Below the pieces are notes generated by a model. That model did no database searches. It was not told the DNA's origin and was given only the letters and a program-made list of their open reading frames with translations. DNA of 64,000 nucleotides from an uncultured bacterium (GTDB lineage: Bacteria > Patescibacteriota > Kazan-3B-28): assembly GCA_963695435.1 (NCBI GenBank), contig OY968788.1:54781-118780 (forward strand). The letters are read 5' to 3'. Made by a program: the position numbers and the translations under genes. Below are positions 13,778 to 60,953 of the stretch, piece after piece (the first letter of the stretch is position 1; each line of letters opens with the position of its first letter).

Positions 13778-16147
13778 GTGGCAGAAGAAAAATACGATCA
13801 CAAACTGATTGAGCCGAAATGGCAAAAATACTGGGCAGATAACCAGATTTTTAAGGCGATTGATGGGGACAAAAAAGCGAAGTATTACGCTTTGGATATG
13901 TTTGCCTACCCATCAGGAGATGGGTTGCACACAGGGCACCCTAGAAGCTACACGGCGACTGATATTTTTGCGCGCTACTATCGGATGAAGGGCTACAATG
14001 TGATGCGGCCAATTGGGTGGGATGCGTTTGGGCTCCCTGCGGAAAACTATGCGATCAAAAAAGGTGTACATCCAAGTAAGACTACTGCGGACAATATTGC
14101 GAACTTTACTCGACAGGTAAAGTCGTTTGGTTTTGCCTACGATTGGGGCAGGGAGGTGAATACTGCCGATCCAAATTATTACAAATGGACGCAGTGGGTT
14201 TTTAAAGTTTTGTATGACAACGGATTGGCTTATCAAAAAGAGGCGTATGCCAACTGGTGTCCAAAAGACCAAACAGTACTTGCCAACGAGCAGGTGGTGA
14301 ATGGTTGTTGCGATCGGTGCGGGGCACAAGTGGAACAAAAGAAACTGAAGCAGTGGTTTTTCAAAATCACAGATTTCGCTGAAGAGCTTTTGGCAGGACT
14401 GGATAAAATCGACTGGCCTGAATCCACAAAGACGGGACAGCGAAACTGGATTGGAAAAAGTGAAGGAGCGGAAATCGCATTCGCGATTAGCGGGTCAGCG
14501 GGTCAGCAGGTCAGCGGGTCAGAAATTAGAGTGTTTACGACTAGGCCGGATACATTGTTTGGGGCGACTTACTTAGTATTGGCGCCGGAGCATGAATTAG
14601 TAGAGAAGCTCACGACTGCGGAGCAGAAAAAGGCGGTTGAAAAATATGTAGCCGACACCAAGTTAAAGACCCATTTGGATAGAACGATGGCGAAGGATAA
14701 GACAGGCGTGTTTACGGGCAGTTTTGCTATCAACCCGGCGACTAAAAAAGAAATTCCAATTTGGATAGCCGATTATGTTCTGACCGATTATGGCACGGGT
14801 GCGATTATGGCGGTGCCGGCGCATGATGAACGAGATTTTGATTTTGCTAAAGAGTTTAAATTGCCAGTGGTGCAGGTTATTCAATCGGACGAGAAACTTT
14901 ACACGGGGGATGGTTCATTAATGAATTCGGGTGAGTTTGACGGACAAGACTCTAAAACGGCTGGACCAAAGATGGCGAAAAAGTTTGGAGGGGAAATAAC
15001 CGTTCAATATAAATTGCACGATTGGCTGATTTCTCGTCAGCGTTATTGGGGAGCTCCGATTCCAATTGTTTATTCTGCAGACGGGGAGACTCAAAGTGTA
15101 GCGGTGGAAGATTTGCCGGTGATATTGCCCAGTGATGTTGATTTCAAACCAACGGGCGAATCGCCATTGGCGAAGTCTAAAACTTTCCAAACGGGGGTTG
15201 AAGAAAAATACGGCAAGGGCGCCAAAAGGGAACTAGATACAATGGATACTTTCGTTTGTTCGTCATGGTATTATTTGCGTTACTGCGACTCCAAAAACGC
15301 TCAAGAATTTGCGGGTAAAAAATCCTTGAAATACTGGATGCCGGTGGATTTGTATATTGGTGGGGCAGAGCATACCAATGGGCATTTGTTGTATGCAAGA
15401 TTTATTACCAAGGTTTTGCACAAACTCGGTTATTTGGATTTTGATGAGCCGTTTTTGAAACTGCGTCATCAAGGATTGGTGCTTGGAAGTGACGGGGAAA
15501 AAATGAGCAAATCCAGAGGAAATGTGATTAATCCTGACGATTTGATTGAACAATATGGCGCTGACACAGTGCGGATGTATGAAATGTTTATGGGGCCGTT
15601 TGACCAGCCCATTGCTTGGGATACTAATGGGGTGGTGGGAGTACGGAAGTTTTTGGACCGAGTGTACCGAATTATTAGTGAGAGAGCAGGTATAAAAGGA
15701 AAGCAAAATGACAATATCCATGGATTGATAAAGAAGGTGACCGAGGATATCGGGGTGATGAAGTTTAATACGGTAGTGAGTAGCTTTATGGAATTTACCA
15801 ATGAGGTTTCCAAAGACGATAGTAGTAATTGGCTCCCAGACTTTGTGAAACTTTTGAGCCCGTTTGCTCCGCACTTGGCAGAAGAATTATGGCAAGAAGT
15901 TTTAGGTCAGAAGGGTAGTGTCTCAGAAGCTTCATGGCCGGAATTTGATGAAGCCAAAACGAAAGCAAAAACAGTCACTATTGCGGTGCAAGAAAAAGGA
16001 AAACTGCGTGGAACGGTCGAGATGCCAGCAGGGGCGAGTGAGACTGATGTTTTGGTAGAAGTTAATAAAAATGAAAAACTGGCAGGCATCACCAAGGCTA
16101 GTTCCAAACATATTTTTGTGAAGGATAGGATTATTAATTTTATTTAG
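13778..16147 (+). CDS. leuS: Leucine--tRNA ligase
   Basis: It has a GTG start. The sequence PYPSGDGLHTGHPRSYTATD carries the HIGH-region motif HTGH, and KMSKS is present. The editing domain is short. Confidence 0.9.
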   Translation: MAEEKYDHKLIEPKWQKYWADNQIFKAIDGDKKAKYYALDMFAYPSGDGLHTGHPRSYTATDIFARYYRMKGYNVMRPIGWDAFGLPAENYAIKKGVHPSKTTADNIANFTRQVKSFGFAYDWGREVNTADPNYYKWTQWVFKVLYDNGLAYQKEAYANWCPKDQTVLANEQVVNGCCDRCGAQVEQKKLKQWFFKITDFAEELLAGLDKIDWPESTKTGQRNWIGKSEGAEIAFAISGSAGQQVSGSEIRVFTTRPDTLFGATYLVLAPEHELVEKLTTAEQKKAVEKYVADTKLKTHLDRTMAKDKTGVFTGSFAINPATKKEIPIWIADYVLTDYGTGAIMAVPAHDERDFDFAKEFKLPVVQVIQSDEKLYTGDGSLMNSGEFDGQDSKTAGPKMAKKFGGEITVQYKLHDWLISRQRYWGAPIPIVYSADGETQSVAVEDLPVILPSDVDFKPTGESPLAKSKTFQTGVEEKYGKGAKRELDTMDTFVCSSWYYLRYCDSKNAQEFAGKKSLKYWMPVDLYIGGAEHTNGHLLYARFITKVLHKLGYLDFDEPFLKLRHQGLVLGSDGEKMSKSRGNVINPDDLIEQYGADTVRMYEMFMGPFDQPIAWDTNGVVGVRKFLDRVYRIISERAGIKGKQNDNIHGLIKKVTEDIGVMKFNTVVSSFMEFTNEVSKDDSSNWLPDFVKLLSPFAPHLAEELWQEVLGQKGSVSEASWPEFDEAKTKAKTVTIAVQEKGKLRGTVEMPAGASETDVLVEVNKNEKLAGITKASSKHIFVKDRIINFI

Positions 16148-16166
16148 ATTCTGAAACGAGTTCAGA

Positions 16167-16808
16167 ATGACGAGAGAAGCTATGGACGAATTACAGCCAA
16201 GTACTAAAGATACGATTTCGGTTGAAGCCGAATGGAAACGAGTGGAGCAATTGTTGGCATCTAAAGAAGACGCCGCATGGGCAATGGCGGTGGTGGAGGC
16301 GTTTAAGATTTTCCATCAAGTTTTGGATGAAGTAAGTTTTGGTGAGACGGTGGAGGAGCAAATTCACAATGCCGGTGAATTGTTCCGTGATGTTCGGGGG
16401 GTGTTGGCAGCAGAAAAAGTTTATCAGCATATTTTGGGGAAAGTTGGTCATCGGATAACTAAGAGTGACGCCAGCAAAGCCAGTGCAGCATTCTTGCAGG
16501 CGATTTTGGATATGATCGGGCGGGATTGGGAGAGTCGGGGCTGGCTAGACCGGTGGCTTTCGGGGCTAAATTATTTTTGGGGGACTCACCCGAAGGCTTT
16601 GGTGGGATTTTTGGCGGGGATATTGATTTTTGTAGTGCTGGTTTGGTTTTTGGCCGACACAGACCTTGGGAAGTGGGTAGCGGGGTTGATGGTTGGGTTT
16701 GCCCATTTTGTACTGGACAACCCTATCTTATTGATAGCGCTAGGAGCGGCTTTGGTGATTTCGATACTGCTTGGGATGACACTCTCCGGTAGGCGACACA
16801 AGCGGTAG
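16167..16808 (+). CDS. Hypothetical membrane protein
   Basis: An N-terminal soluble part is followed by 3 C-terminal transmembrane helices. No motif is recognised. Confidence 0.4.
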   Translation: MTREAMDELQPSTKDTISVEAEWKRVEQLLASKEDAAWAMAVVEAFKIFHQVLDEVSFGETVEEQIHNAGELFRDVRGVLAAEKVYQHILGKVGHRITKSDASKASAAFLQAILDMIGRDWESRGWLDRWLSGLNYFWGTHPKALVGFLAGILIFVVLVWFLADTDLGKWVAGLMVGFAHFVLDNPILLIALGAALVISILLGMTLSGRRHKR

Positions 16809-27867: not shown

Positions 27868-28838
27868 ATGATTTGGCAGATTATTATTGGCGCGCTACTG
27901 CTATTCCTGGTGGTTTATGTGGTAATAGCAAAGAAGATCACGATGATTCCTTCATCGGTGTTTGTGATGACTTTGCTGGGCGTTATCGTAGGACTTTCTA
28001 TCGGGACATTGGTGTCGTTGCCTCTGGCAAAGATGTCAGGAGTCTGGGGGTGTGGCTCCCTCTCTTGGTAAACATTTTTTCGGTAGCGATTACTACAACT
28101 TTCTTTTATAACCAGCGGGATAAAATTGGTGAGTCTCTGAACCAGTTCTTTGCGCTGATGAATACATTGGTAAAAGAGACAAAAAAATTGCGGCGGGATA
28201 CTCCAGGGAGTCTCTCCGAGGGCGGAATTGTGCTGGATACGAGTGTAATTATTGACGGTCGGATTGCCGACTTGGCAAAAACGGGCTTTCTTTCAGGCCG
28301 GTTGATTTTGCCGAGGTTTGTGTTGGACGAATTGCAATTGGTGGCGGACTCGGAAGAAGCTATGCGGCGCAACAAAGGCAGACGGGGGTTGGAGGTTCTG
28401 GATGAACTGCGGCATGAGCGGGGTGTTCGGCTGGAAGTAGTGGATGATGATTTTATCAGCGAGTCTGATGTGGACTCGAAGATTATTCGGTTGAGCAAGA
28501 AGTATCATGCTCGGCTGATGACGGTGGATTATAATCTCAATCGAGTGGCGCGGATTCAGAATCTAACGGTTTTGAACATTAACGAGCTGAATAACGCGCT
28601 TCGGCCGGTGGTGCTGCCAGGGGAGGTAATGAAACTGAAAGTAATCCAGTCAGGGAAGGATGTTGGACAAGGCGTTGGTTATTTGGACGATGGGACAATG
28701 GTGGTGGTTGAAGGGGGAGATAAGCACATTGGGCAAGAAGCAGAAGTAGTGGTGACCCGAGTTTTTCAGACGGTGGCGGGGAAAATGATATTTACGATGC
28801 CAAAAGAGAAGTATCAAGAACGTCGTAGAGTGATCTAG
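27868..28838 (+). pseudogene. yacL: YacL-like PIN + TRAM domain membrane protein, interrupted by a -1/+2 frame change at a G5 run (28046-28050)
   Basis: Transmembrane helices are encoded in one frame (27868-28071). The PIN and TRAM domains (ILDTSVIIDGRIADLAKTGFL, RNKGRRGLEVL, VLNINELNNALRPVVLPGE) are encoded from about 28040 in another frame. The match to B. subtilis YacL continues across the shift. Confidence 0.65.
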
Positions 28839-28902
28839 GTTTTTCTTTTTCTGTCATGCTTGAGCGAAGCGAAGCATCTATAATGATGTTTCTTTTTGTT
28901 TT

Positions 28903-29105
28903 CAAGGGTCTCCGCGACCCTTGTATCGCGGTTACTTTGTCTTGTCAAAGTAACCAAACCGTCCCGCCAGTCGCTTTCGCTATTCATCTAATAAAATTAG
29001 CTTTCTGACTTACGGCGAACTCCTCCTTGTCAGTCGTCAAACAGCGCCTTCGTCAGCGCTAATTTTATTGATTCATTACACTCAAGCTCCAATGGCGGAT
29101 GGGAG
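28903..29105 (+). repeat. Intergenic structured repeat element, copy 1 of 3. Two leader hairpins are followed by a core of about 140 nt closed by long-range pairing, ending ctcaagctccaatggcgg.
   Basis: The core 28963-29105 is about 92% identical to 60727-60860. The hairpins 28903-28960 match 34963-35020. Confidence 0.7.
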
Positions 29106-29282
29106 ACAAAAAACAAGTGGATTGTTTCGAATCCGCTATATAGAGAAGGTATGTGCTGCAACTAGTGGGCGACTAGCCGCCTATTTGTCCACCATTAAGT
29201 ATCATTTTGGCTCCTGTAATTCATAGAACAGTATAAGATACTGACATAATAACATATGTCTAAGGGCGAAAAGTGAGCTGAC

Positions 29283-29311
29283 TTGACGAGAGGTAGTTTT
29301 TGTGGTATAAT
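29283..29311 (+). promoter_or_regulatory. Strong sigma70-type promoter: TTGACG, 17 nt spacer, extended -10 TGGTATAAT
   Basis: The sequence cttgacgagaggtagtttttgtggtataatga lies about 28 nt upstream of the TTG start of the surface-protein gene. Confidence 0.6.
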
Positions 29312-29338
29312 GAGCAATAAAACTAAAATAAAAACGGC

Positions 29339-30679
29339 TTGAATAAAATCAGCTTCAATAAGCATAAATTGTTTCAATGGCTGGAGCGAGAGCTGTGTGC
29401 CGTTTTAGCAATACTAATAGTAGGGGCGGGTGTCGTATTGACGCGAGCAGGGACTACTAGTGAAGTGTTAACGACGCTAAGTGTCTTGCCGGCTGCAGGG
29501 ACAATCCAGGTGGATGTTCCTAATGGCGGAGAGAGTTGGCAGATTGGGACTAGCCAGACAATTGAGTGGATGGCAGGGGCTGGTATAGCTGATGTGAAGA
29601 TAGAGCTACAGCGGACTACAGGTGGGACTTGGGAAACGATTGTCGCAACGGTGGCAGCGAGTGACGGGAGTTATCCATGGACCGTAACTGGTTCGGCAAC
29701 CACTACAGCAATTGTTAAAATTAGCGATACAACCGATCCATTGATTACGGATGTAAGTAATGGGGTGTTTGCAATTACGGCGGCAGTTGTTCCCCCAGTG
29801 ACTCCTCCAACTTCTGGTGGGGGTGGTGGGCCGACTTTACATCCGCCTTTTATTAGCAATGTACAGCCGAGTTCCTTTACAAATACAACTGATGTAATTT
29901 TGGATGTGACGGGATTAAATTTTGAGTACAACACGATTTTCAAATTAGGTACTTCAGATATACGGATGTTGTGGAGCGGCAATACTTCTCATGTTCGGTT
30001 AAAAGTGCCGAGAGGTTTCAAACCTGGCAAGTATGTTTTGGCTGTGTATAACAGCGATGGTACGTTGGCGACTTGGGACAAACAAATTGAGGTTAAGGGA
30101 ATGTATTATGAAGCCGCTTTATTGAACCAGTCGAGTCGACAAATTAAATTGACTGTCGGTCAAACTGCGGAGGTTTGGGCGGATTTTGTAAATACAGGAA
30201 CTGAATCGTGGCTAACCTATACTCGTAACACTACTCGCTTGGGTACTTCTCAAAAACGCGACAGACGAAGTGTGTTTTGGCGAAGTAGCTGGGTGTTGCT
30301 CAACCGACCGGCTAATGTCCAGAAAGCAGGTCTAAGAGGCAGACAAGAGATTAGGCCGGGAGAGACTGGTAGGTTTATTTTTAAGGTGAAAGCTCCGAGC
30401 AAGTCGGGAAATTATGTGGAGTATTTTTCACCAGTAGCAGAATATCTCCAATGGATGGATGCGACAGTATCTTGGGAAATTGTTGTTACAGCTAAGCCAA
30501 CGACTAAGGTTCCAACCACAAGTCAATCTACGATTGGTAGTAAAAGTGTTAGTTGGCCGACATTTGGTCTTCCCGAAGGACCATTAGATTTTTACGACAG
30601 AACCGAGGGATTCTTGTGTGATTTAGGTGGATTATTTAATCGGCTTCTAGGCGGATTTAAAAGTTTGTGGGGTAACTAA
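29339..30679 (+). CDS. Surface protein with an N-terminal transmembrane anchor, a Kre9/KNH-like Ig-fold domain (G.SW..G....I.W), Gly/Pro linkers and a C-terminal Ig-like repeat shared with the SpoIID protein
   Basis: It has a TTG start. PNGGESWQIGTSQTIEW...YPWTV is present, as are the PPVTPPTSGGGGGP linker and a NTG..W...F.VKAPSKSGNYVEYF module. Confidence 0.55.
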   Translation: MNKISFNKHKLFQWLERELCAVLAILIVGAGVVLTRAGTTSEVLTTLSVLPAAGTIQVDVPNGGESWQIGTSQTIEWMAGAGIADVKIELQRTTGGTWETIVATVAASDGSYPWTVTGSATTTAIVKISDTTDPLITDVSNGVFAITAAVVPPVTPPTSGGGGGPTLHPPFISNVQPSSFTNTTDVILDVTGLNFEYNTIFKLGTSDIRMLWSGNTSHVRLKVPRGFKPGKYVLAVYNSDGTLATWDKQIEVKGMYYEAALLNQSSRQIKLTVGQTAEVWADFVNTGTESWLTYTRNTTRLGTSQKRDRRSVFWRSSWVLLNRPANVQKAGLRGRQEIRPGETGRFIFKVKAPSKSGNYVEYFSPVAEYLQWMDATVSWEIVVTAKPTTKVPTTSQSTIGSKSVSWPTFGLPEGPLDFYDRTEGFLCDLGGLFNRLLGGFKSLWGN

Positions 30680-31749
30680 TGAAAAACTTTCGACTTCACC
30701 GATTTTTGCAGTGGGTGGAGCGCGAACTATGTGCGGTATTAGCAGTAGGGATAGTTGGGCTGGGGAGTATATGGGCGATGGCCGGCACTAGTGGTACGGC
30801 AACTTTGTCAGTAACAATCTTGCCTCCGGGAGGAGAAGTTATTTCGGTGACAACGCCTAACGGCGGAGAGAGTTGGACAGTGGGTACTAGTCAAAGTATC
30901 ACTTGGACTGCTACGGTGACAATTACGGATGTCAAAATTGAATTACAGCGTTCGGTTGGAGGAGCTTGGGAAACAATAGTTGCATCAACTACTAATGATG
31001 GAACTTATTCATGGACAGTTGCAGGGTCTGCTACAACAGCAGCAAATATACGAATTAGCAAAGTCGGAGATGCTTCGGTTAATGATGTAAGTAATGCGAT
31101 ATTTAGTATAGTTGCGGCAGGCGGCGGTGGTGGAGGAGGGATTACTCAACCAGTTCCTCAACCCGTAGCGCCTCCAGTCGTAGAGGTGTGGCAAGCGTCT
31201 GATTATCGGGCACGGGTGATTCAACAAACCTATGCTCTTGTCTTATTGCCAGAAGAGGAAGCGACGATAACAATAAGACTTTTGAATACAGGTCGGGCGA
31301 CTTGGTATGGTAATGGCGTTTCCAACCCGATTCGATTGGGAGTTGTGGGTGACGACCCCAGTACGCTATCGGCTGACGCTTGGATAAAATTTAATCGTGC
31401 GGCAGCAATAGAGTCGAATGATGTTCTTGGAGCGGTTCAGCCGAAAGAAGAGGGGTGGTTCACTTTGAAAATACAGGCTCCATTAAAGCCGGGTGTTTAT
31501 CGTGAACAGTTTGCGGTAGTCGCAGAGTATCTTACTTGGCTATCTAATACAAAAGTTAATGTAAAAGTGACGGTGCCAGCCCCTAAGGTAATCGCAAAGA
31601 AGACTTCGTCTAAAGTTACTCCAACAACCCCGACTACTCCAAAGACTATAAAAGGAACCGTCCCGCAAAAGGAAGGTTGGTTGGCCACGGTATGGCATTG
31701 GATATTAAATAAAGCGGTAGCTGCGGTGAAAGCTGCGACTACACATTAA
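30679..31749 (+). CDS. Paralogous surface protein (same transmembrane anchor + Kre9/KNH-like domain + GGGGGGGG linker + Ig-like repeat)
   Basis: MKNFRLHRFLQWVERELCAVLAV aligns with the upstream paralog. PNGGESWTVGTSQSITW is shared. The start overlaps the stop of the previous gene. Confidence 0.55.
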   Translation: MKNFRLHRFLQWVERELCAVLAVGIVGLGSIWAMAGTSGTATLSVTILPPGGEVISVTTPNGGESWTVGTSQSITWTATVTITDVKIELQRSVGGAWETIVASTTNDGTYSWTVAGSATTAANIRISKVGDASVNDVSNAIFSIVAAGGGGGGGITQPVPQPVAPPVVEVWQASDYRARVIQQTYALVLLPEEEATITIRLLNTGRATWYGNGVSNPIRLGVVGDDPSTLSADAWIKFNRAAAIESNDVLGAVQPKEEGWFTLKIQAPLKPGVYREQFAVVAEYLTWLSNTKVNVKVTVPAPKVIAKKTSSKVTPTTPTTPKTIKGTVPQKEGWLATVWHWILNKAVAAVKAATTH

Positions 31750-32833
31750 AGCGGAAGAGGAGGACATCGCCATCTTTGACGATGTATTCTTTTCCTTCGC
31801 TTCGAACTTTGCCTGCTTGTTTGGCACCAACCCAGCCGCCATTATTTACAAAGTCGTCATATGCGACGGTTTCGGCGCGGATGAATCCTTTGGTGAAATC
31901 GGTGTGAATTGCGCCGGCGGCAATTGGGGCGGTGTCGCCATTGTGAATTGTCCAACCGCGAGTTTCTTTTTCACCGGCGGTTAAAAAGGTAATGAGGCCA
32001 AGTAGTTTGTAGCCAGCTCGGATTACTTTATCCAAACCCGATTCGGTGATGCCGGCTTCGCGGAGATAGTCGATGCGTTCATCAACACTTAGTTCGGTCA
32101 CTTCGGCTTCAGTCTTGGCATCAATGGCAATGATTTCGGCATTGTCTTTTAGGGCAAGTTCGCGAAGGGGAGCGAGAAGAGTGTCAGCGTCTTTGATTTG
32201 AGCTCCATCAATGTTAGCGACATAAAGAATTGGTTTGGCGGAAATTAGCTGAAGTTCTTTTAGCCAAACTGGCTCCTCTCCGGTAAGGGTTAGGGAGCGA
32301 GCTGAAAATCCATCGCCCAAATGTTTTTGTACTTTCAGGAAGAAATCAACTTTGGGTTGGAGTTTAGCATCACCGCGGGCGGCCTTTTCTTCTTTGGGGA
32401 GCCGTTTTTCAATATTCTGGAGGTCGGCCAAAATTAGCTCGGTGTTGATGATTTCAATATCATCTTTTGGATTAATCCCGCCACTGACATGGGTGACATT
32501 GCTGTCGGCAAATAGTCGAACTACTTCGACTATAGCGTCTGTTTCTCTAACATGGGATAGAAATTGATTGCCCAAACCTTCACCCTGACTAGCGCCCCTA
32601 ACGAGTCCTGCGATATCAACGAATTCAACAGTTGCGGGAACGATTTGAGCGGAGTGTTCGAGCTCGGCGAGTTTGGCAAGTCGAGCGTCTGGGACTGGGA
32701 CAATGCCTGTGTTTGGTTCAATCGTACAGAATGGGAAATTGGAAGCGGCCGCTTGGTTTGCGCCAAGCAGAGCGTTGAAAAGTGTAGATTTTCCGACGTT
32801 GGGGAGACCAACGATGCCGAGTTTAAGAGACAT
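31739..32833 (-). CDS. ychF: Ribosome-binding ATPase YchF (Obg-like GTPase)
   Basis: GIVGLPNVGKSTLFNAL is the G1 motif. The C-terminus is a TGS domain. Confidence 0.9.
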   Translation of the reverse strand: MSLKLGIVGLPNVGKSTLFNALLGANQAAASNFPFCTIEPNTGIVPVPDARLAKLAELEHSAQIVPATVEFVDIAGLVRGASQGEGLGNQFLSHVRETDAIVEVVRLFADSNVTHVSGGINPKDDIEIINTELILADLQNIEKRLPKEEKAARGDAKLQPKVDFFLKVQKHLGDGFSARSLTLTGEEPVWLKELQLISAKPILYVANIDGAQIKDADTLLAPLRELALKDNAEIIAIDAKTEAEVTELSVDERIDYLREAGITESGLDKVIRAGYKLLGLITFLTAGEKETRGWTIHNGDTAPIAAGAIHTDFTKGFIRAETVAYDDFVNNGGWVGAKQAGKVRSEGKEYIVKDGDVLLFRFNV

Positions 32834-33393
32834 TACTTTGCTCTCTCTAAATATGAACCGTCACGAGTATCTACCAGAATTGTATCACCGGCATTGATAA
32901 ACATTGGAGCGCGAAGATTCATGCCGGTTTCAATTGTGATATTTTTTTGCGGGTTGGTAGCGGTATCGCCACGAACTGCCGGTTCAGCTTCAATCACTTT
33001 GAAGGGCATTTTTGCGGGCAGATTAATATTGATAGGCGAACCGTTGTAAAAAACCAAGTCAACTTCCTGACCGTCTTTAATAAAACTGCTAGCAAAACCA
33101 ATAATGGGCCCTCCGATATTGAATTGGTCAAAAGTCGTGCTATCCATAAATACAAAGTCGGTACCTTGTCGGTAAAGGAATTGAGCTTTTCGGCGTTCGA
33201 GATTCACGGGGTTGAATTTTTCGTCGCCGTGAAAAGTCCGCTCAATGTTGTTGCCGGTTAGTAAGTTTTTTAGAGTGGTTCGCAGCACAGCTCCTCCGCG
33301 TCCCATTTTGGAGTGCTGGTATTTGACTACTTCATAAGGAGCTCCTTCAAGCTCGATGTTTACGCCGGTTTTGAGATCGTTAAGAGAAAGCAT
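32833..33393 (-). CDS. efp: Elongation factor P
   Basis: The N-terminal KOW-like region and the conserved K in SKMGRGGA are present. The length is 186 aa. Confidence 0.9.
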   Translation of the reverse strand: MLSLNDLKTGVNIELEGAPYEVVKYQHSKMGRGGAVLRTTLKNLLTGNNIERTFHGDEKFNPVNLERRKAQFLYRQGTDFVFMDSTTFDQFNIGGPIIGFASSFIKDGQEVDLVFYNGSPININLPAKMPFKVIEAEPAVRGDTATNPQKNITIETGMNLRAPMFINAGDTILVDTRDGSYLERAK

Positions 33394-33531
33394 GGGATTG
33401 GGATTTTAAATTTGTGAGCAATCTCGAATTCACTTCGGATTGCGAACTCTATTTGGAAAGGGAGGCAGTGAGCGTAAGCGAGCGTCGGAAGGGAAAACCC
33501 TTGATTCTCGGGTTTTCACTCCGAGCTTATT

Positions 33532-33792
33532 TTAATGCAGGGCGTAAGGAACCAGCGCCATGTAGCGGGCGCGTTTGATTGCTACAGCCATATCACGCTG
33601 TTGCTTGGCGGTAAGACCGGAACGGCGGCGTGGTTCGATTTTCATGTAGCGAGTCATGTACCGACGGATAAGTCGGACATTTTTGTAGTCGATGTAGTTC
33701 AGCTCGTCGCTTCCCACATTGTAATTGCGTGGAGTCAGAGTGGTGACTCGGCGACGGCTTACGCTAGTAGTAGATTTTTTTGGGAATGCCAT
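33532..33792 (-). CDS. rpsR: 30S ribosomal protein S18
   Basis: IDYKNVRLIRRYMTRYMKIEPRRRSGLTAKQQRDMAVAIKRARYMALVPY matches the S18 consensus. Confidence 0.9.
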   Translation of the reverse strand: MAFPKKSTTSVSRRRVTTLTPRNYNVGSDELNYIDYKNVRLIRRYMTRYMKIEPRRRSGLTAKQQRDMAVAIKRARYMALVPYALH

Positions 33793-33813
33793 AGTTCTTT
33801 TAGAGTTATTAGT

Positions 33814-34266
33814 TTAGAAAGGAATATCTTCAATATTGATTTCATCGCTGGCGGTGCTCAAAGGATCAGAGGCGACAGCGGCAGGTTGTTCAGTTTTTTC
33901 GGAAGCGCTGTTTTGGAGCGGAGCGACTTCGCTGGCAGGTGCACGGTCGAGCAAGATTAAGTCAGAGGCAATCACTTCGGTTTTGTAGCGCTTGATTCCA
34001 TCTTGTTCCCAACTGCGAGTTTGGAAACGACCTTCGACATATGTCCGACGGCCTTTGCGGTAGATCTGGCCAACAATTTCAGCGAGCTTGCCCCAAGCCA
34101 CGATATCCATGTATTCGACAGCGTCTTGGCGATTGCCTTGGGCATCATTCCAAGAACGATTTGTGGCGACAGAGAACGAAGCGACAGTCTGTCCGCTTGG
34201 AATAGTGCGAACTTCTGGGTCGCGGGTCAGGTTCCCGATGAGCATTACTTTGTTTAGGTCACGCAT
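33814..34266 (-). CDS. ssb: Single-stranded DNA-binding protein
   Basis: An OB-fold N-terminus is followed by a flexible tail ending DIPF. Confidence 0.9.
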   Translation of the reverse strand: MRDLNKVMLIGNLTRDPEVRTIPSGQTVASFSVATNRSWNDAQGNRQDAVEYMDIVAWGKLAEIVGQIYRKGRRTYVEGRFQTRSWEQDGIKRYKTEVIASDLILLDRAPASEVAPLQNSASEKTEQPAAVASDPLSTASDEINIEDIPF

Positions 34267-34295
34267 GATATTTGAAATTAATGGCTAATATGCCT

Positions 34296-34838
34296 TTATT
34301 CTTCTTCTAGTAGTTTACCAAGCTTCTCTTCCAACTCTTTCATCCGAGTGGCTTCGTCTTTTTCGGATGGCTTAGGTGCTTCTGCGACTGGAGTTGTCGA
34401 TTTGGTGCGTGTGCGAGGAGCTGGTGTACGTCTTTCGGTGGAAGTGGTTGGGCGAGAAGGAGTGCGCTCACTTAGGGGAGCTTCTTTGAATGGGTCAACG
34501 CGTTTCATTGTTTCTGGAGTGATACCTTCCTTTTCCAAAGAAAGAGCGAGGTGGCGAATTATTTCTGGCATTAGTTTGATGTCGTGGGTGAGTTCGGCAA
34601 ACCCTGCGGTTGGATATGAAAAGACGAGGGCGGCGTAAAAGCCGAACTCGAACTTGCCGATTGGATAAGCGAGGCGCTGTTTGCCCCACATATCGGTCGA
34701 AAAGATTCGACCGCCTTTTTGGGCGATTTGATTCTGTAGTTTAGCGATTATTTTTTGGATATCCATCTCCTGTGTCTCGGGGGAGATGAGGAGGGCGATT
34801 TCGTAGTTGCTAAAGGTGATTTCTTCAGTTGTAGCCAT
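34296..34838 (-). CDS. rpsF: 30S ribosomal protein S6 with a basic/acidic C-terminal extension
   Basis: YEIALLISPE...WGKQRLAYPI is the S6 signature. The gene order rpsF-ssb-rpsR is conserved. Confidence 0.85.
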   Translation of the reverse strand: MATTEEITFSNYEIALLISPETQEMDIQKIIAKLQNQIAQKGGRIFSTDMWGKQRLAYPIGKFEFGFYAALVFSYPTAGFAELTHDIKLMPEIIRHLALSLEKEGITPETMKRVDPFKEAPLSERTPSRPTTSTERRTPAPRTRTKSTTPVAEAPKPSEKDEATRMKELEEKLGKLLEEE

Positions 34839-34962
34839 GGTTAAGAATCCTTATCTATGGTTGAGCCCTGTGGGCTTCACCCCGAGATGCTCGGGGAGTA
34901 GAAGGTTAGAGTTATATGAGAGGAGTATAAGGGATTGACCTGAACAGGTCAAGGGAGGGGTG

Positions 34963-35190
34963 CAAGGGTCTGCGCGACCCTTGTACCGCGGTTACTTTGT
35001 CTTGTCAAAGCGACGGAAACCGCTTGCCCACGTCGTCGGGCTTATTCATTGGATAAATTACCTTACCGCTTAAAGGGCAAACTCACCCGATAGCCATCGG
35101 GTTCAAACATGCCCCCGCGACGGCAATTTATCTCAATTCAGGACAGCCCTCCTCCTATGGCATGAAGACAAAAGCTCCAATGGTGGGGAG
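34963..35190 (+). repeat. Intergenic structured repeat element, copy 2 of 3 (divergent copy)
   Basis: The leader hairpins ggtctgcgcgaccc and ggttactttgtcttgtcaaag match copy 1. In the core, the closing stem arms are replaced by different but still complementary sequences (ggataaattacc / ggcaatttatct). The 3' end is aagctccaatggtgggg. Confidence 0.55.
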
Positions 35191-35244
35191 GAGAAAACAG
35201 GTATAATATGGTCAGTTAGGGGGCGGTATAGTTTTAACATTCGC

Positions 35245-35334
35245 GGAGGGTTCGCCTAGTGGTCTATGGCGCTCGCTTGGAAAGCGGGTTGGGGCGCAAG
35301 CCTCTCGAGGGTTCGAATCCCTCACCCTCCGCCA
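35245..35334 (+). tRNA. tRNA-Ser (anticodon GGA), class II
   Basis: The acceptor stem is ggagggt/accctcc. The anticodon loop is uuGGAaa. A long variable arm and CCA are present. Confidence 0.8.
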
Positions 35335-35347
35335 GAAAGGAGATAGT

Positions 35348-36094
35348 ATGTTTGTCAAAGCGATTAGGGTGGCGCAGGATGTGATGTTCCCAATTTTTGG
35401 TTGGAATCAAATTTCGCCAACCGAAGCACAGGTTGGGGTTGCAGGCACGGGCTTTTTCGTTAGTTCGGAGGGGCACTTTGTCTCTGTGGCCCATGTTTTT
35501 GATACAGGCAACACGACTACCAAATTTCTATATATAGGACGTCTACCAGAAGAAGTTCATACCCGGCTTGAAATTCAGGAGATTGCTAGAGATGACGAGA
35601 ATGATGTTTTTCTGGGCAAAGTTGATGTAAAAGGTGTCCCGTATGTGATAGTGGATTCATTGGTCCCAGATGTGGGTCGTTCGGTTTGTATTGGCGGGTA
35701 TCCTTTGGCTACAATTTCAACCAACGAAAACGGAGGTCTGCAACTTGGTGGGGTTCGTCGTTATTTTCAGCCCTCATTCGTTTTGGATAAAGCGGGGGAG
35801 TTGCTTAGTAAGGGACCAACGGGGAAAATTAGAAAACATAATGGGTATCCAGTTCGTGATGCGGGACTTTATGGTATGAGTGGTGGTCCTGTGTTTGATG
35901 CGGACGGTAATGTCGTAGGTGTTCAAGGGTCTATTATTTCTCGGGACAGTAAAAATGCGGTAGGGCAATCGATTGCTGTTCACAACGCGTTTTCATTGCA
36001 GATGAATAAGTTTGTGGATCTAATGCGCAAACACGGTGTCGGGAATAATAGGGTGGTTGACGCAGGGAGCCTAGAACCTATTTCGTCGGAATAA
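35348..36094 (+). CDS. Cytoplasmic trypsin-like (S1/chymotrypsin-fold) serine protease
   Basis: The catalytic triad context is GTGFFVS..HFVSVAHV (His), DENDVFLG (Asp) and GMSGGPVFD (Ser). No signal peptide or transmembrane segment is present. Confidence 0.6.
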   Translation: MFVKAIRVAQDVMFPIFGWNQISPTEAQVGVAGTGFFVSSEGHFVSVAHVFDTGNTTTKFLYIGRLPEEVHTRLEIQEIARDDENDVFLGKVDVKGVPYVIVDSLVPDVGRSVCIGGYPLATISTNENGGLQLGGVRRYFQPSFVLDKAGELLSKGPTGKIRKHNGYPVRDAGLYGMSGGPVFDADGNVVGVQGSIISRDSKNAVGQSIAVHNAFSLQMNKFVDLMRKHGVGNNRVVDAGSLEPISSE

Positions 36095-36096
36095 TT

Positions 36097-36507
36097 ATGA
36101 CAAACTTTATTACAAGAATATTCCCTTCTAAAGAAGTAAAAGCAGCGTTAGGAGTCATCGATGAGGCGGCTGTGATTTTTGATGACAACTTATCCTTCCC
36201 GTTAGTAATAGGCCATGTTCGGTCGATGATTCTGGCACAACCAGAGAAATTTGTATCCATAATTCAGAAGGGGCAGACTCCTCGTGCATGGGTGTATTCC
36301 GCTATTGCTAATGTGGCAAGCGACCTTGCCGAGAGTGGAAACTATCATCTTTACAGGGGTATGTTGAATCCAATCGGGCCCGGTGGTGGTTTGTTTAAAT
36401 TATATTCTGCGGCAGTTGATGAATTAGTACACCTTGGGGTTGTGGATGAAAGTTCTGCTAAAGAACATAAAGCGCAGGTGGCTCACAATATTGGTCAGGT
36501 TGGGTAA
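36097..36507 (+). CDS. Hypothetical 136-aa protein, probably translationally coupled to the protease (gap of 2 nt)
   Basis: It is an ORF with no recognisable motif and sits in a compact two-gene unit. Confidence 0.4.
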   Translation: MTNFITRIFPSKEVKAALGVIDEAAVIFDDNLSFPLVIGHVRSMILAQPEKFVSIIQKGQTPRAWVYSAIANVASDLAESGNYHLYRGMLNPIGPGGGLFKLYSAAVDELVHLGVVDESSAKEHKAQVAHNIGQVG

Positions 36508-38280: not shown

Positions 38281-39957
38281 ATGGCGAGCAAAAAAACTGC
38301 TCCAAAAAAGAAAGCAGCCCCTCGCGTGGCGGGTAAACGGGCGGTGGCTCGGAAACGGGTGACCGTCGGGAAAAAGCCGGCGAAAAGTAAGCAGGTCAGC
38401 AGGTCAGCAGGTAAGCGGGCAAGTAATAAAAAAGTAGTGAAAAAAATGGCAAAGAAGAAACCGATTAGAAAACCGGCTCCAAAAAAGACCGCCCCTAAAC
38501 GGGCAGGTAAAAAACGGGTGATTAAGAAAAAGCCGGCAAAAAAATTGGTAAAGAAAGTATCAAAGAAAAAGCCGGCAAAAAAGATAGTAAAGAAGAGACC
38601 GATAAAAAAGGCTGTTAAGAAGAAACCAGCGAAGAAACTGAAGCCGAAGAAGTCGGTAAAGAAACCGTTGAAGAAGCTAGCAAAGAAAGTTGCTCCTAAG
38701 AAGGTAAGTAAAAAACGCAAATCAGAAGCAGAAGAATTGCTCGGAGAGCCAAGACCAGAAGAACCAAAACTCAAGATATTTGAGATTGAGGATGAAGACG
38801 AAATTGCCAAAAAAAGGAAACGCAAAGAATCTGGTATTGGTAAGCTCCCGGGGCCGGTAGCGGATTTGGTATCCGCCGGTAAGGCAAAAGGCTTTATCAC
38901 TCAACAAGAACTAGAGCAGGCGGTCCCGAATGTGGAAAAGCAAATCGAAATGCTTGATTTGTTGTTCCAGATTTTGATGGAAGAAGGAATTGAGGTGGTA
39001 GATGTTCGGGACGATCTGATCTGGGCATTGGCCGGGGACAGTAAGCTAAGCAAGAAAACTGAAGCCACTAAGAAAAAAATGCGGAACAAGCTGGATGTGA
39101 ATATCGATCCGCACTTGTTGGAAGATGACATCAGTGATGACTCGGTAAGGATGTATCTGAAGGAAATCGGACAGGTGCCGTTGCTTCGAGCCGAAGAAGA
39201 AGTCGCGTTGGCAAAACGAGTGGAAATGGGTGATGTGCTGGCGTCCAAACAGTTGGCGGAAGCAAACTTGCGGTTGGTTGTATCGATTGCCAAAAAATAT
39301 ATTGGCCGAGGATTGTCGCTTTTGGATTTGATTCAGGAAGGCAACATCGGTTTGATGAAAGCGGTGGAGAAATTTGACTGGCGACGAGGATTCAAATTCT
39401 CAACTTACGCGACTTGGTGGATTCGTCAGGCCATTACTCGCGCCATTGCCGACCAAGCTCGAACAATTCGTATCCCGGTGCACATGGTAGAAACGATGAA
39501 CAGGCTTTCTCGTACTCAACGGCAATTGGTGCAAGAGCTTGGGCGTGAGCCGACTCCAGAAGAAATTGCCAATGAAATGGAATTGGAAGTTGAAAAAGTT
39601 AACCACATTCTAAAGATTTCGCAGGAGACTGTATCTTTGGAAAAGTCGGTCGGTGACGAAGATGACTCTTTGCTTGGTGACTTTATTCAAGATGAAGATA
39701 GTCTGACGCCGGAAGAAGCTTCGGCTTACGAACTTCTGAAAGGTGATGTGGGCGGAGTACTTGATTTGTTGTCGCCAAGAGAGCAAAAGATTCTGAAGTT
39801 GCGATTTGGTCTTGGCGGCGAGTGGGCACACACGCTGGAGGAAGTAGGTAAAGAATTCGGAGTCACTCGTGAGCGTATTCGTCAGATCGAAGCTAAGGCA
39901 CTAATGAAATTGCGCAAGAGCAAAGACAGTAAGAAGTTGAAAGATTATTTGAAGTAA
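38281..39957 (+). CDS. rpoD: RNA polymerase sigma factor RpoD (sigma70) with a roughly 170-aa lysine-rich N-terminal extension of histone-H1-like AKKPAKK repeats
   Basis: The region 2 motif is [30 protein letters not shown]. The region 4 motif is [15 protein letters not shown]. The dnaG-rpoD order is conserved. Confidence 0.9.
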
Positions 39958-43296: not shown

Positions 43297-43359
43297 CTAT
43301 GGGGTTTATCGCTAAAGAGGCGGTGGCTTTTGTGTGATAATAGGGACGAAAGGAGTTAT

Positions 43360-43581
43360 ATGAAGAAAATATTTCTTTGGGGCGGGTTAGTTGGCTTTAT
43401 CGTCTTTTTCCTGTTGGGATTTTTGGCGGGGGCAACTAATGGTCCTGATAATCAGCCGGTTTTTGCGTTAGTCTATGGTACTAACCAGGTTCTCTGGGCA
43501 TTCCTTGGTCTTGTTTTCGCAATTCTTTTCATCATCGGTTTAGTGATGGTGATTGTTGGTGCGATAAAGAGACGCAAATAG
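43360..43581 (+). CDS. Small (73 aa) two-transmembrane membrane protein
   Basis: AAGGAG precedes the ATG. The start MKKIFLWGGLVGF and the end IIGLVMVIVGAIKRRK are recognisable. It is a paralog of the next ORF. Confidence 0.55.
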   Translation: MKKIFLWGGLVGFIVFFLLGFLAGATNGPDNQPVFALVYGTNQVLWAFLGLVFAILFIIGLVMVIVGAIKRRK

Positions 43582-43637
43582 TAGGGGATAGATAATTCTC
43601 TTAGATATTAGAATGACTGTTTGGTAAAAGGATTTTT

Positions 43638-43853
43638 ATGAAAAGAACATTTCTTTGGGGTGGGTTGATTGGTTTTGCCGTATTTTTTCTGATAGGACTT
43701 CTAACCAGCACATCAAACAATGGACCGTCCATATTACCTCTCACTTGTGATTCAAAAGGTTTGATATGGGTTCTCTTTGCTCTTGTTGGCGCTGTATTTT
43801 TCCTGATTGGCTTGGTGATGGTGATTGTTGATGTGATAAAAAGACGCAAGTAG
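43638..43853 (+). CDS. Small (71 aa) two-transmembrane membrane protein (paralog)
   Basis: MKRTFLWGGLIGFAVFFLIGLL...LIGLVMVIVDVIKRRK is about 60% identical to 43360..43581. Confidence 0.55.
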   Translation: MKRTFLWGGLIGFAVFFLIGLLTSTSNNGPSILPLTCDSKGLIWVLFALVGAVFFLIGLVMVIVDVIKRRK

Positions 43854-46347: not shown

Positions 46348-46423
46348 GGGCCCGTAACTCAGTGGTTAGAGTAGTCCCCTCATAAGGGATTAGTCCTTGG
46401 TTCGAATCCAAGCGGGCCCACCA
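46348..46423 (+). tRNA. tRNA with CAT anticodon, probably tRNA-Ile2 (lysidine tRNA) or an elongator Met
   Basis: The acceptor stem gggcccg/cgggccc is fully paired. The anticodon loop is cuCAUaa. The D-arm resembles E. coli tRNA-Ile2. CCA is encoded. Confidence 0.75.
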
Positions 46424-46556
46424 CGGCGTCGAAATGGCTTCGCTCGACGCGCGAGCAAAACAGGTTTGCTCGGCTAATGAAGCTCAGCATTTCTCCTTTC
46501 AAAATTACAAACACTTCGTTGGTTTACAATTTTGGTTAGAGACAAAGACTTAGTAT
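46424..46556 (+). repeat. tRNA-trailer repeat element
   Basis: It begins cgtcgaaatggcttc as at 1284. It shares gctcggctaAtg and cagcatttctcctttc with that copy and carries the variant motif ttggtttacaattttggttag. Confidence 0.65.
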
Positions 46557-47118: not shown

Positions 47119-47152
47119 AGCCAATGTTAGCAATTCAGCTCATATCTGTCCA

Positions 47153-55983: not shown

Positions 55984-56055
55984 TATTTGTTTGTCATGCT
56001 GAACTTGTTTCAGCATCTAGATCCTGAACTAAATTCAGGATGACGGAGAAAAGAT

Positions 56056-59546: not shown

Positions 59547-60650
59547 ATGGCATTTGATTCGTGGTTTATGAGTGGTAATTATTACGAGATATTGGGTGTA
59601 TCAAAAACTGCTACACCAGATGAACTAAAAAAAGCTTATCGGAAGCTTGCTTTGAAATATCATCCTGACAAAGGGGGTGGGGCGGAGGCAGAAAAGAAAT
59701 TCAAAGAAATAAACGAGGCGTATCAGGTTCTGTCGGACGAAACTAAACGGCGGCAGTACGATCAATACGGCCAAGTGTTTGGCAATGGTCAGCAGGCAGG
59801 GGCGGGATTCGGAGGATTTGATTTTAGTTCTTTTGGCGGAGAAAACTTTGGCGATTTTGGAGATATATTTGAAACATTTTTTGGCGGAGGCGGGAGGAAG
59901 TCCAAGCGGAGCAAGGAAGATATCTTGAGAGGAGAAGACATTGAGCTGGTGATGGAATTGAGTTTTGAGGAGGCGATTTTTGGCGGAGAAAAAACTATTT
60001 TGGTGACACATGAAACTGTTTGTAAAAATTGCAACGGAACCGGCTCATCAACAAAAAAACAAACCACTTGTGCTAAATGCGGAGGAACGGGACGAATTGA
60101 AATCACTCGCCAAACAGTATTTGGCGCAATTCGTCAGTCTCAAACTTGTTCAGTCTGCAAAGGAGCGGGGGAAGTGCCGGAAAAAGAATGTCAGACTTGT
60201 CGCGGAGCGGGACGAGTGCGTCAGCAACGAGAAGTGAAAATAAAAATTCCCGCAGGCATTGATGGAGGACAAACAATTCGGGTGAATAGCGAAGGTAATG
60301 CTGGTAAGCGCGGAGGGAAGTCCGGCGATTTGTATATTACCGTAAAAATCAGACCCAGTCGCGAATATCGGCGTTCGGGCGCGGATTTGTATAAAACAAT
60401 TTCCATACCTTTCACTAAAGTTGTGTTGGGCGGAAGCGTAAAAGTAAATACTTTGTACGGGGAACTGAATGTAAAAATTCCACCTGCAACTAAGGCAGGA
60501 GAAGTTTTGCGGGTGCGCAATTACGGCGTTCCGACAGGAAGCACTAAGGGAAGTTTGTATTTGCAAATGGATATTGACGTTCCCACTAGGTTAACGATTA
60601 AACAACGTAGGTTGCTTCAAGAGCTTGATGGGGAACTAAGAGACAATTAG
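59547..60650 (+). CDS. dnaJ: Chaperone DnaJ
   Basis: The J-domain carries HPD. A G/F region is present. Four CxxCxGxG zinc-finger repeats are present. Confidence 0.9.
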
Positions 60651-60666
60651 TTTTTTATTTTCTTTT

Positions 60667-60860
60667 TAAGCGCTCGCGCCGCGCTTAGACTGGCGGTGTC
60701 TTTTCTAGAAAAGACACCCAAAAGTCCCCGCCAGTCGCTTTCGCTATTCATCTAATAAAATTAACTTTCTGACTTACAGCGAACTCGCTACGCTCAAACA
60801 GCGCCTTCGTCAGCGCTAATTTTATTGATTCAGTACACTCAAGCTCCAATGGCGGATAGA
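60667..60860 (+). repeat. Intergenic structured repeat element, copy 3 of 3
   Basis: The core 60727-60860 is about 92% identical to 28963-29105. It is preceded by two different hairpins (aagcgctcgcgccgcgctt; ggtgtcttttctagaaaagacacc). Confidence 0.7.
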
Positions 60861-60953
60861 GAAATAATAAAAAATTAGTAAGCTTTACTTTTGGGATTTT
60901 TTCTGGCATGCTGTGGTCAGTTAATTTCCGCCTTAAAAAGCTATTATTAATCT

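Follow-up and report, generated by a model that had tools for sequence, protein, structure and literature searches.

Results

Three copies of a structured element in one window

The window analysed here, a stretch of 64,000 nucleotides from an uncultured bacterium of the Kazan-3B-28 lineage of Patescibacteria (assembly GCA_963695435.1, contig OY968788.1, positions 54,781 to 118,780), carries three copies of an intergenic, structured repeat element. Their cores, at 28955-29098 (copy 1), 35015-35163 (copy 2) and 60719-60855 (copy 3), are all on the plus strand and lie where the original prediction, made from the sequence of the window, had placed them. Copy 1 is found after a yacL-like PIN/TRAM gene (27873-28838) and before a gene for an Ig-domain protein (29339), copy 2 between rpsF (minus strand, start codon at 34838) and tRNA-Ser(GGA) (35245), and copy 3 between dnaJ (stop at 60650) and a membrane-protein gene (60954). 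A three-anchor motif occurs three times in the window against an expectation of 0, and all three copies fold far better than their dinucleotide shuffles (z = -6.4, -4.2 and -3.9 for copies 1, 2 and 3). Their parts are listed below, with scores from covariance model R1 of the core, built from 6 copies, and from a second model, R2; L numbers denote other genomes and contigs.

28853..28878, plus strand: GTCAT...GATC hairpin GTCATGCTTGAGCGAAGCGAAGCATC, just 5′ of copy 1 (direct reading)
28889..28902, plus strand: pyrimidine-rich leader of copy 1, TTTCTTTTTGTTTT (read directly from the sequence)
28903..28923, plus strand: hairpin P(-1) of copy 1, CAAGGGTC-tccgc-GACCCTTG (from the fold; 96% identical to 34963-34983)
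28930..28955, plus strand: hairpin P0 of copy 1, GGTTACTTTG-tcttgt-CAAAGTAACC, then the linker CAAAC (from the fold)
28955..29098, strand left unassigned: core of copy 1, a rod-shaped hairpin (covariance model match of 143.8 bits, fold, covariation), with helices P1 CCGCCA/TGGCGG, P1b GCTT/AAGC, P2 CTAATAAAATTAGC/GCTAATTTTATTG and P3 CTGAC/GTCAG plus an apical part; conserved motifs on the plus strand are GTC, TATTCAT, GAACTC, TCAAACA, ATTCAnnACA and GCTCCAAT
29099..29114, plus strand: purine/A-rich tail of copy 1, ATGGGAGACAAAAAAC (similar tails in copies 2 and 3)
34963..35015, plus strand: 5′ module of copy 2, with P(-1) at 34963-34983 and a weakened P0 at 34990-35015
35015..35163, strand left unassigned: core of copy 2, a divergent 'beta' subtype (41.8 bits with R1, 89 bits with R2), with helices P1 TGCC/GGCA, P1b GGGCT/AGCCC, P2 GGATAAATTACC/GGCAATTTATCT, P4 GGGC/GCCC and P5 ACCCGAT/ATCGGGT
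35174..35198, plus strand: second CCAATGG box of copy 2, GCTCCAATGGTGGGG (35174-35188), and tail GAGGAGAAAAC
60645..60650, plus strand: left direct repeat AATTAG, which includes the dnaJ stop TAG at 60648-60650 (from the empty sites in L025 and L026)
60651..60718, plus strand: T-rich leader of copy 3 (60651-60667) and two 5′ hairpins
60668..60686, plus strand: hairpin P(-1)′ of copy 3, AAGCGC-tcgcgcc-GCGCTT
60695..60718, plus strand: hairpin P0′ of copy 3, GGTGTCTTTT-ctag-AAAAGACACC
60719..60855, strand left unassigned: core of copy 3, of the same subtype as copy 1 (covariance model match of 144.8 bits)
60856..60878, plus strand: A-rich tail of copy 3, ATAGAGAAATAATAAAAAA, and right direct repeat AATTAG (60873-60878)

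Copies 1 and 3 are near-identical, as had been predicted, with 128 matches, 5 mismatches and 11 gap columns between 28963-29105 and 60727-60860; the figure of 92% originally given for their identity becomes 96% outside the one 11-column indel and 89% when the indel is counted. The leader of copy 1 (TTTTTGT, 28893-28899) is complementary to its tail (ACAAAAA, 29106-29112), as is that of copy 3 (TTTTTTATT) to AATAAAAAA at 60866-60874, and a T/C-rich run 5′ of the first hairpin is seen in most copies of the family. The two 5′ hairpins described for the element are present in copy 3 too, with a different sequence. Copy 2 retains them in a 48-nt module shared with copy 1 (28903-28950 and 34963-35010, 96% identical), which is separated by ~10 bp from the rpsF promoter's -35 box (minus strand, promoter at 34952-34924); the identity of the cores of these two copies is just 55-60%. 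The long stem of copy 2, GGATAAATTACC/GGCAATTTATCT, is complementary and different in sequence, as the prediction said, but was wrongly labelled as closing: it is P2, an inner helix, and the element is closed by P1 (CCGCC/GGCGG; TGCC/GGCA in copy 2) and P1b (GCTT/AAGC; GGGCT/AGCCC in copy 2). Likewise, the 3′ end that copy 2 was said to keep does have a homologue there, CCTCCTATGGCA (35152-35163), but GCTCCAATGGTGGGG, whose GTGGG is able to pair with CCCAC at 35027-35031, is an extra second box; L034 and L016b have a second box as well. The tail of copy 2 stops 3-4 nt short of the TATAAT (35202-35207) upstream of tRNA-Ser. On the 3′ side of copy 3, a hairpin and T-run (from 60877) are common to relatives.

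A repeat family in Kazan-related hosts

We searched GTDB species genomes, JGI metagenome contigs and viral contigs with a pattern of three conserved unpaired motifs. The pattern found one true locus in the GTDB species genomes, in the Patescibacteria metagenome-assembled genome (MAG) UBA10110, and 4 true loci out of 16 in the JGI contigs. The remaining metagenome matches proved to be coding sequence or an unrelated repeat. We also set aside as chance a Sulfurovum match (L004) inside transketolase coding sequence, two more Sulfurovum and two Bacillus/Neobacillus matches, these four judged by source organism alone, and two viral-contig matches (one giant-virus MAG) that the covariance model did not confirm.

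Model R1 recovered the divergent copy 2 together with new copies, namely a second one in L016 and those in L034, L035 and L038/L039, and R2 gave no additional copies over 335 kb. The family thus totals 11 copies in 8 genomes or contigs, scoring 34-145 bits, so that the covariance search of other genomes that had been proposed for the element yielded 8 further copies in 7 other Patescibacteria contigs. Weak model matches at 15647-15753 of the window (minus strand, 15 bits, inside leuS), at 43902-43936 of the window and at 11073-11125 of L029 were rejected as chance. All hosts are placed near candidate division Kazan by their neighbouring proteins.

When the whole window was scanned on both strands at gathering score, no family of Rfam 15 matched the element, and a scan of 28800-35350 on both strands at E<=10 gave merely tRNA and chance matches. 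Nothing similar to copy 1 was found by blastn in phage and plasmid collections, and we found no description of the element in the literature. The repeat family of these Kazan-related Patescibacteria is previously undescribed.

Conserved structure

The unit, of ~200-250 bp, consists of a pyrimidine-rich leader, one or two variable short hairpins (P-1 and P0), a linker and a rod-shaped hairpin of 126-190 nt, with no conserved open reading frame (ORF). P0 stands directly 5′ of the core in 11/11 copies and covaries (GTTAC/GTAAC, GCTAC/GTAGC, GACAC/GTGTC); in the window copies the additional hairpin P(-1) lies ahead of it. After P0 come the linker, with consensus C(A/C)AAAG, and helix P1, whose variants across the family (CCGCC/GGCGG, CAGCC/GGCTG, TGCC/GGCA) are followed by the motif GTC. 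P1b takes the forms GCTT/AAGC, GCCC/GGGC, GGGCT/AGCCC and GGGAT/ATCCC, the last two being a covariation between copy 2 and L034, and leads to the motif ..TATTCAT and to P2, a 12-14 bp helix whose A/T centre is constant and whose ends vary, and then P3. The apical part is variable, either GAACTC-P5-TCAAACA with a P5 of 5 to 15 bp or a short GCCC-loop-GGGC form, and in L038 another small hairpin repeat is nested within the P5 loop. On its 3′ side follow the motif ATTCAnnACA.. and the unit end, (G/C)CTCCAATGG.

Helix sequences drift across the family yet remain complementary, and the three short mismatch motifs are constant. In a model-based alignment of the 11 copies, standard pairs make up 89.4% of cells and 18 of the 25 pairs have changed on both sides. 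None of 500 column shuffles reached the observed level of covariation, and slid partners were only 30-53% paired. Since RNAalifold also finds compensatory pairs (15-17) on plain MAFFT alignments of 7 copies, the structure of the element is under selection. The predicted structured element with compensatory changes is thus upheld by covariation over the whole family, with RNAalifold in agreement.

The strand that folds

It had been assumed that the plus strand is the folded one; three measures favour its complement. The 25 modelled pairs contain 15 A·C/C·A cells and 5 G·T cells on the plus form, and the complement therefore has 15 wobble pairs and 5 mismatches. RNAalifold gives -38.7 kcal/mol for the complement (covariation term -6.5, 4 broken cells) and -24.8 kcal/mol for the plus form (covariation term -3.05, 14 broken cells). 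Furthermore, the conserved internal loops of the plus form have the arrangement TC(helix)TC, as in GTC(P1b)TCC, ATTC-AT(P2)AT-TCA and CTC(P5)TCAAACA, which becomes GA(helix)GA on the complement, as in tandem sheared G·A pairs. The 11 complements contain 26 tandem G·A sites and the plus forms 0, compared with a mean of 5.4 and a maximum of 13 in shuffles. The G·A reading is supported by L038, in which the tandem mismatch beside P2 is replaced by two Watson-Crick pairs, and by L035, in which two adjacent pairs covary from AT/AT to GC/GC.

Raw energy is uninformative on the strand: the complement folds 8-19 kcal/mol better, as do its shuffles, because the plus form is G-poor, and the z-scores are similar. 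A scan for promoters and terminators on both strands gave none that is consistent for the element. The evidence leans towards a folded strand that is the complement of the sense strand, at odds with the sense polarity described below.

Occupied and empty sites

In the closest relatives (DnaJ 77-80% and YacL 88-95% identical) the spacers at all three sites are element-free, and ~128 kb scanned in relatives L025-L033 contained zero copies. At the dnaJ site of L025 and L026 (DnaJ 80% and 77%) the same 170-aa gene follows after an element-free spacer of 48-56 bp, compared with 303 bp in the window. The sequence 3′ of the copy 3 insertion (AGTAAGCTTTACTTTT...TTTTTCTGGCAT) aligns with these two relatives, and the ~222 extra bases lie between 6-bp direct repeats AATTAG (60645-60650 and 60873-60878). 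Short-read assemblies with an identical DnaJ stop ~106 nt past the gene, ~30 nt into the repeated core.

The yacL spacer measures 89 bp in four relatives (L030-L033, YacL 88-90%) and 500 bp in the window; in L029 (YacL 95%) it is 192 bp long with unrelated hairpins. The promoter of the gene downstream (29283-29311) is conserved beyond the insertion. With a GTCAT hairpin standing beside copy 1, the yacL spacer of the window is therefore a mosaic of inserted repeats. In L032 the rpsF/tRNA-Ser spacer is element-free between GGTCAAG and GTATAAT, and the distance from the rpsF promoter box to the TATAAT of tRNA-Ser is 4 nt there compared with ~250 bp, including copy 2, in the window. These comparisons show three separate insertions in the window genome relative to its nearest relatives: one just past the dnaJ stop, one in the spacer of yacL and one separating tRNA-Ser from the rpsF promoter. 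Elsewhere in the family, the site after a glucosaminidase-like gene (UBA10110 group) is filled in L016 and L021 and empty in L034, L035, L038, L041 and L043, and L022 has an element between a 211-aa gene and dnaE, where the window has only a 48-bp spacer.

The original prediction had considered a likeness to miniature inverted-repeat transposable elements (MITEs). Its suggestion of mobility is supported by the presence and absence at orthologous sites in close relatives, but the long terminal inverted repeats do not hold up, the covarying stems being internal helices and not transposase-binding ends. Nor did we find the many degraded copies with target-site duplications that were expected of a simple MITE, a duplication being visible at one copy only.

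A second family of hairpin repeats, 22-60 nt long with a constant foot GTCAT(Y/G)C...G(A/C)ATC(T/C) and variable tops, often adjoins the element. It has four copies in the 64 kb of the window (16148-16171, minus; 28853-28878, plus; 55993-56016, plus; 56021-56044, minus) and is also present in L016, L021, L022, L034, L035, L038 and L041. These hairpins sometimes form inverted pairs a few bases apart, in a REPIN-like manner, and none was found in the element-free relatives scanned (L025, L026, L029, L030, L032). Two neighbouring genes also deserve comment. Homologues of the yacL-like ORF 27873-28838 cover ~82% of it, and a 67-aa ORF in another frame (27868-28071) resembles a membrane N-terminus, which suggests a frameshift or mis-set start in the window genome. 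Where L032 (GCA_964434605.1, 17232-17909) has an NT5C nucleotidase gene between tRNA-Ser and dnaG, a gene for a trypsin-like peptidase and a 136-aa ORF are found in the window (35348-36507), a small gene replacement beside the tRNA and copy 2. L035 (4500-4900) and L038 (4950-5350) share ~400 nt of conserved non-coding sequence (…CGATCGAATAGGCATAAACCC…GGGAGTGATCGGCTCCCGAACG…) on the downstream side of the glucosaminidase-like gene, for which the L035 copy gave no Rfam match at gathering score.

Mosaicism and polarity

The copies L016b and L034 occupy the same site, after an orthologous 93-95 aa gene, and are homologous in the leader, P0 and the second CCAATGGGCAGAC box, with cores that are ~50% identical. 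Shared 5′ modules with divergent cores, in this pair as in copies 1 and 2, show that cores and 5′ modules have been swapped between copies. The core of copy 2 is nearest to L034 (67%), closer than to copies 1 and 3, and subtypes cross host boundaries. The elements L016a and L021 are 84% identical, compared with 62% for the adjacent protein.

Every copy runs in the same sense as the gene next to it. For seven this holds with respect to the transcription unit immediately upstream, including the L035 copy ~160 nt after 5S rRNA; the L019 copy is upstream of clpP, where its contig begins, and its upstream neighbour is not visible. The genes concerned are unrelated (yacL, dnaJ, tRNA-Ser, clpP, dnaE, glucosaminidase-like, 5S rRNA and the 93-aa protein gene). 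The GC skew of the window genome is strong and replication-linked (+0.14 to +0.27 overall; even the third codon positions in minus-strand genes give positive values), which places its three copies on the leading strand. At the site shared by L016b, L034 and L038 the element is on the other (lagging) strand by skew and its polarity relative to the gene is unchanged. Thus polarity follows transcription rather than replication, on the evidence of this one informative site.

A tie to inserted gene islands was considered and rejected as a general feature, being true of L034, L038 and perhaps copy 2 and untrue of copies 1 and 3. In L034 (9887-11320) and L038 (8050-10417) the element borders a variable small-gene island after the 93-95 aa gene, with an NYN-domain gene in L038; L035, L036 and L021 have no such island, and there the 93-95 aa gene directly abuts def-fmt.

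Discussion

We favour, with moderate confidence, the view that these elements are a family of non-coding, non-autonomous, mosaic, structured interspersed repeats in Kazan-related Patescibacteria. Insertion relative to close relatives, covariation and a fixed polarity are established by the comparisons above. Base pairing is kept and sequence is not, which argues that the object of selection would be a folded single strand. Its likely partner is a protein acting in trans, which would copy or move the element and for which the constant mismatch motifs are putative points of contact. The inserted unit may then form part of the 3′ untranslated stretch of the upstream transcript: copy 3 sits between a stop codon and the ancestral terminator-like hairpin, and this position, from the stop to the conserved hairpin and T-run, suggests co-transcription with dnaJ. 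By analogy with other structured repeats of bacteria, a unit within a transcript could affect RNA stability or processing as a side effect.

Several observations weigh against this view. The alignment behind the pair counts was fitted to the model, and just 11 copies were to hand, three of them at one orthologous site. Only copy 3 has a clear target-site duplication (AATTAG); copy 2 has none when compared with L032, and the mosaic nature of the yacL spacer prevents the borders of copy 1 from being defined. Such terminal inverted repeats as exist are short (7-9 bp), A/T-rich and missing in the copies of other genomes. Three genomes have an element at the site after the 93-95 aa gene, which could reflect vertical inheritance and a local function rather than mobility. 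Finally, no moving enzyme was identified, and a Pfam scan of 20 less obvious ORFs of the window revealed no transposase, integrase or reverse transcriptase.

A bolder version of the mobile repeat takes the complement as the selected molecule, either an antisense RNA or a single-stranded DNA (ssDNA) or complementary DNA copy of a read-through transcript. Its three nested GA(helix)GA modules would dock a dedicated protein, and the element would spread via that intermediate. On the complement strand each copy ends in a hairpin and then an A-rich tail, with a flanking target duplication at copy 3. We regard this version as unlikely; if true, the ultra-small genomes of Patescibacteria would harbour mobile elements of a new kind, spreading by way of RNA or ssDNA.

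Other explanations can be set against the same data. The copies might be free-standing small RNA genes, each its own transcription unit for a protein-binding RNA of ~150-250 nt, possibly read from the complementary strand and multiplied by duplication. The strong covariation, the unpaired and mismatch motifs conserved across distant hosts and the better conservation of the element than of the neighbouring protein gene are what such genes would display, and the wobble pattern of the complement (15 G·U-type and 5 A·C-type cells) is typical of functional RNA; the complement also carries three tandem G·A motifs. However, neither strand has a promoter-like site at a consistent distance or a terminator after the element, close relatives lack copies, the copies are at non-orthologous sites, and copy 3 is placed between the stop codon and dnaJ's own terminator-like hairpin; we judge this explanation slightly less likely still. 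Tandem G·A mismatches are stable in DNA too. The hairpin could have been selected as DNA, as a folded ssDNA site for a recombinase or HUH/Y1 transposase (like attC or the ends of IS200/IS605) or as a reverse-transcribed copy like the msd of retrons. The complement does fold best and carries those mismatches; rod, constant mismatch motifs, variable end, location at gene 3′ ends and antisense folding strand mirror attC anatomy, and pairing of the leader with the tail could enclose the 5′ hairpins and rod of copies 1 and 3, like the a1/a2 repeats of retron RNAs. This proposal is quite improbable, given that there are no attC core sites (RYYYAAC/GTTRRRY), cassette arrays, nearby integrase or adjacent reverse transcriptase, that no IS605-related Rfam motif matched, and that at the one informative site (L016b, L034, L038) polarity tracks the neighbouring gene, unlike in IS200/IS605.

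More doubtful again is a cis-acting regulatory RNA for the adjacent gene, whether riboswitch, attenuator or dedicated stabiliser of the 3′ untranslated region (UTR). All copies being sense to the adjacent gene, most of them in 3′ UTR position, would fit such a role, as would the occupation of the site after the 93-95 aa gene in three genomes and the possibility that box 1 or box 2 of the beta subtype pairs with the same 5′ strand, in a switch-like manner. But the neighbouring genes are functionally unrelated, most copies are downstream and not upstream of genes, the same genes lack the element in close relatives, and it folds better on the strand antisense to these genes. We find a classical MITE, an internally deleted insertion sequence mobilised in trans by a DDE transposase, with terminal inverted repeats and a fixed-length target duplication, the least probable of these alternatives. 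Small size, the absence of ORFs, multiple copies and insertion polymorphism (3 copies in 64 kb, none in ~128 kb of relatives) agree with it, copy 3 has 9-bp ends (TTTTTTATT/AATAAAAAA) flanked by the AATTAG duplication, and copy 1 has the 7-bp leader/tail complement. Yet copies from other genomes do not share these A/T-rich ends, copy 2 has neither, nor any duplication, and we saw no transposase-bearing parent element in 335 kb. It is internal parts that are conserved and covary, where an end-acting transposase does not need them, and with short, non-conserved terminal repeats the defining marks of a DDE-type MITE are missing.

Considered as interspersed repeats, the elements are closest in kind to bcr1 and to ERIC and BOX. 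The bcr1 repeat of the Bacillus cereus group (~155 bp, 'bcr group A') is intergenic, differs in distribution between related genomes, keeps an RNA secondary structure by compensatory changes and possibly belongs to a special mobile class with no transposase of its own (PMC3184786). Both are thus small non-coding intergenic repeats with a non-conserved distribution and compensatory changes, and our element too may belong to such a mobile class; they have no sequence similarity. Each bcr1 copy has a constant 5-bp direct repeat, whereas one duplication, of 6 bp, is seen here; bcr1 is a cruciform of two independent stem-loops, in contrast to one long rod with 5′ hairpins; and transcription is known for bcr1, whereas this element is known from its sequence and its better-folding strand is antisense to its neighbours. 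ERIC, BOX and Correia (NEMIS) repeats, from enterobacteria, pneumococci and Neisseria, are intergenic, often at gene 3′ ends, co-transcribed and able to form long hairpins, and their numbers vary between close relatives; BOX is built from exchangeable modules (PMC3184786). They are defined by conserved sequence or by terminal inverted repeats (for example with TA duplication, in Correia and RUP), whereas here helices drift and mismatch motifs are constant. BIMEs, mosaic clusters of REP sequences, are likewise built from exchangeable modules. Intergenic location, long hairpins, varying numbers and, for BOX and BIMEs, modularity are therefore shared with our element, which differs from all of them in its host, a Patescibacteria genome of 0.56 Mb, and has no Rfam or sequence match.

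Integron attC sites lie at gene 3′ ends, conserve structure over sequence, form a rod with constant unpaired or mismatched positions and a variable end, and fold on the antisense strand. The likeness is one of anatomy only: the ends of our element read CCRGCCAGTC...GCTCCAATGGCYGG with no RYYYAAC/GTTRRRY cores, and it occurs as single copies by housekeeping genes that are element-free in relatives, with extra 5′ hairpins and no arrays or integron integrase. The non-autonomous derivatives of IS200/IS605 (PATEs) and the omega-RNA of TnpB share with our element structured ends without long inverted repeats, strand-specific orientation and a conserved scaffold of 100-200 nt. The polarity of our element is, however, independent of the replication strand at the informative site, and its folding strand is opposite to the prediction for that family; no TnpA or TnpB gene was found nearby among the 20 window ORFs scanned, and no IS605-type Rfam motif. 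Other candidates were also rejected. A REP/REPIN is a GC-rich palindrome of 20-40 nt, often in inverted pairs and with a RAYT transposase in the genome, whereas the element is 5-10 times larger and its P2-flanking motifs are direct and not inverted; a riboswitch or leader does not fit neighbours without a common function and copies mostly downstream of genes; a strict MITE does not fit the lack of conserved terminal inverted repeats and sits poorly with a duplication at one copy only; and a retron msr-msd would have an adjacent reverse transcriptase, where what follows the copies is an Ig-domain gene, tRNA-Ser with a trypsin-like peptidase gene, and a membrane protein gene. Resemblances to IS110 bridge RNA, 6S RNA, signal recognition particle RNA and k-turns were considered, and none could be backed by a test.

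The genomes of Patescibacteria are among the smallest and most streamlined, and this one of 0.56 Mb has recently gained at least 3 structured repeat copies in 64 kb that also contain the four copies of the second hairpin family. Neither family was seen in ~128 kb of relatives at 80-95% protein identity. The repeats are a marker of recent genome flux in a lineage whose mobile DNA is poorly charted, and they explain the breaks at these sites in assemblies of this organism. They also provide a test case in which covariation, constant mismatch motifs, exchangeable modules and fixed polarity come together, yet the antisense strand folds best. Settling this conflict of strands could reveal a route of copying in organisms with very few known transposases.

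Other repeats and genes in the window

Two further repeats in the window are associated with stable RNA genes. One of 82 nt (1276-1357 and 46419-46500, 78% identical) has its start within two tRNA genes, at the 3′ end of tRNA-Ser(CGA) and of a tRNA-Met, and extends downstream of them; it may represent a further repeat family or a trailer common to these tRNAs. The other, of 29 nt (ACCCCGTAGAAGAAATTT..., 47152-47180 and 63602-63630, 90% identical), lies ~35 nt from the 5′ end of a minus-strand tRNA-Met (47043-47118) and ~280 nt upstream of the start of 16S rRNA, and could be a shared promoter or processing signal. At 52594-52683 on the minus strand there is a 90-nt tRNA-like gene (51 bits with the Rfam tRNA model) to which ARAGORN assigns no anticodon ('ac' at position 36). 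A small membrane-protein gene and its ribosome-binding region are tandemly duplicated at 43349-43581 and 43627-43853 (77-78%). Runs of an 8-nt unit, GGTCAGC(A/G), are found at 14486-14530 in the leuS-like gene and at 38379-38423 in a sigma-factor gene, the N-terminus of which also has lysine-rich 39-nt repeats (38425-38682).

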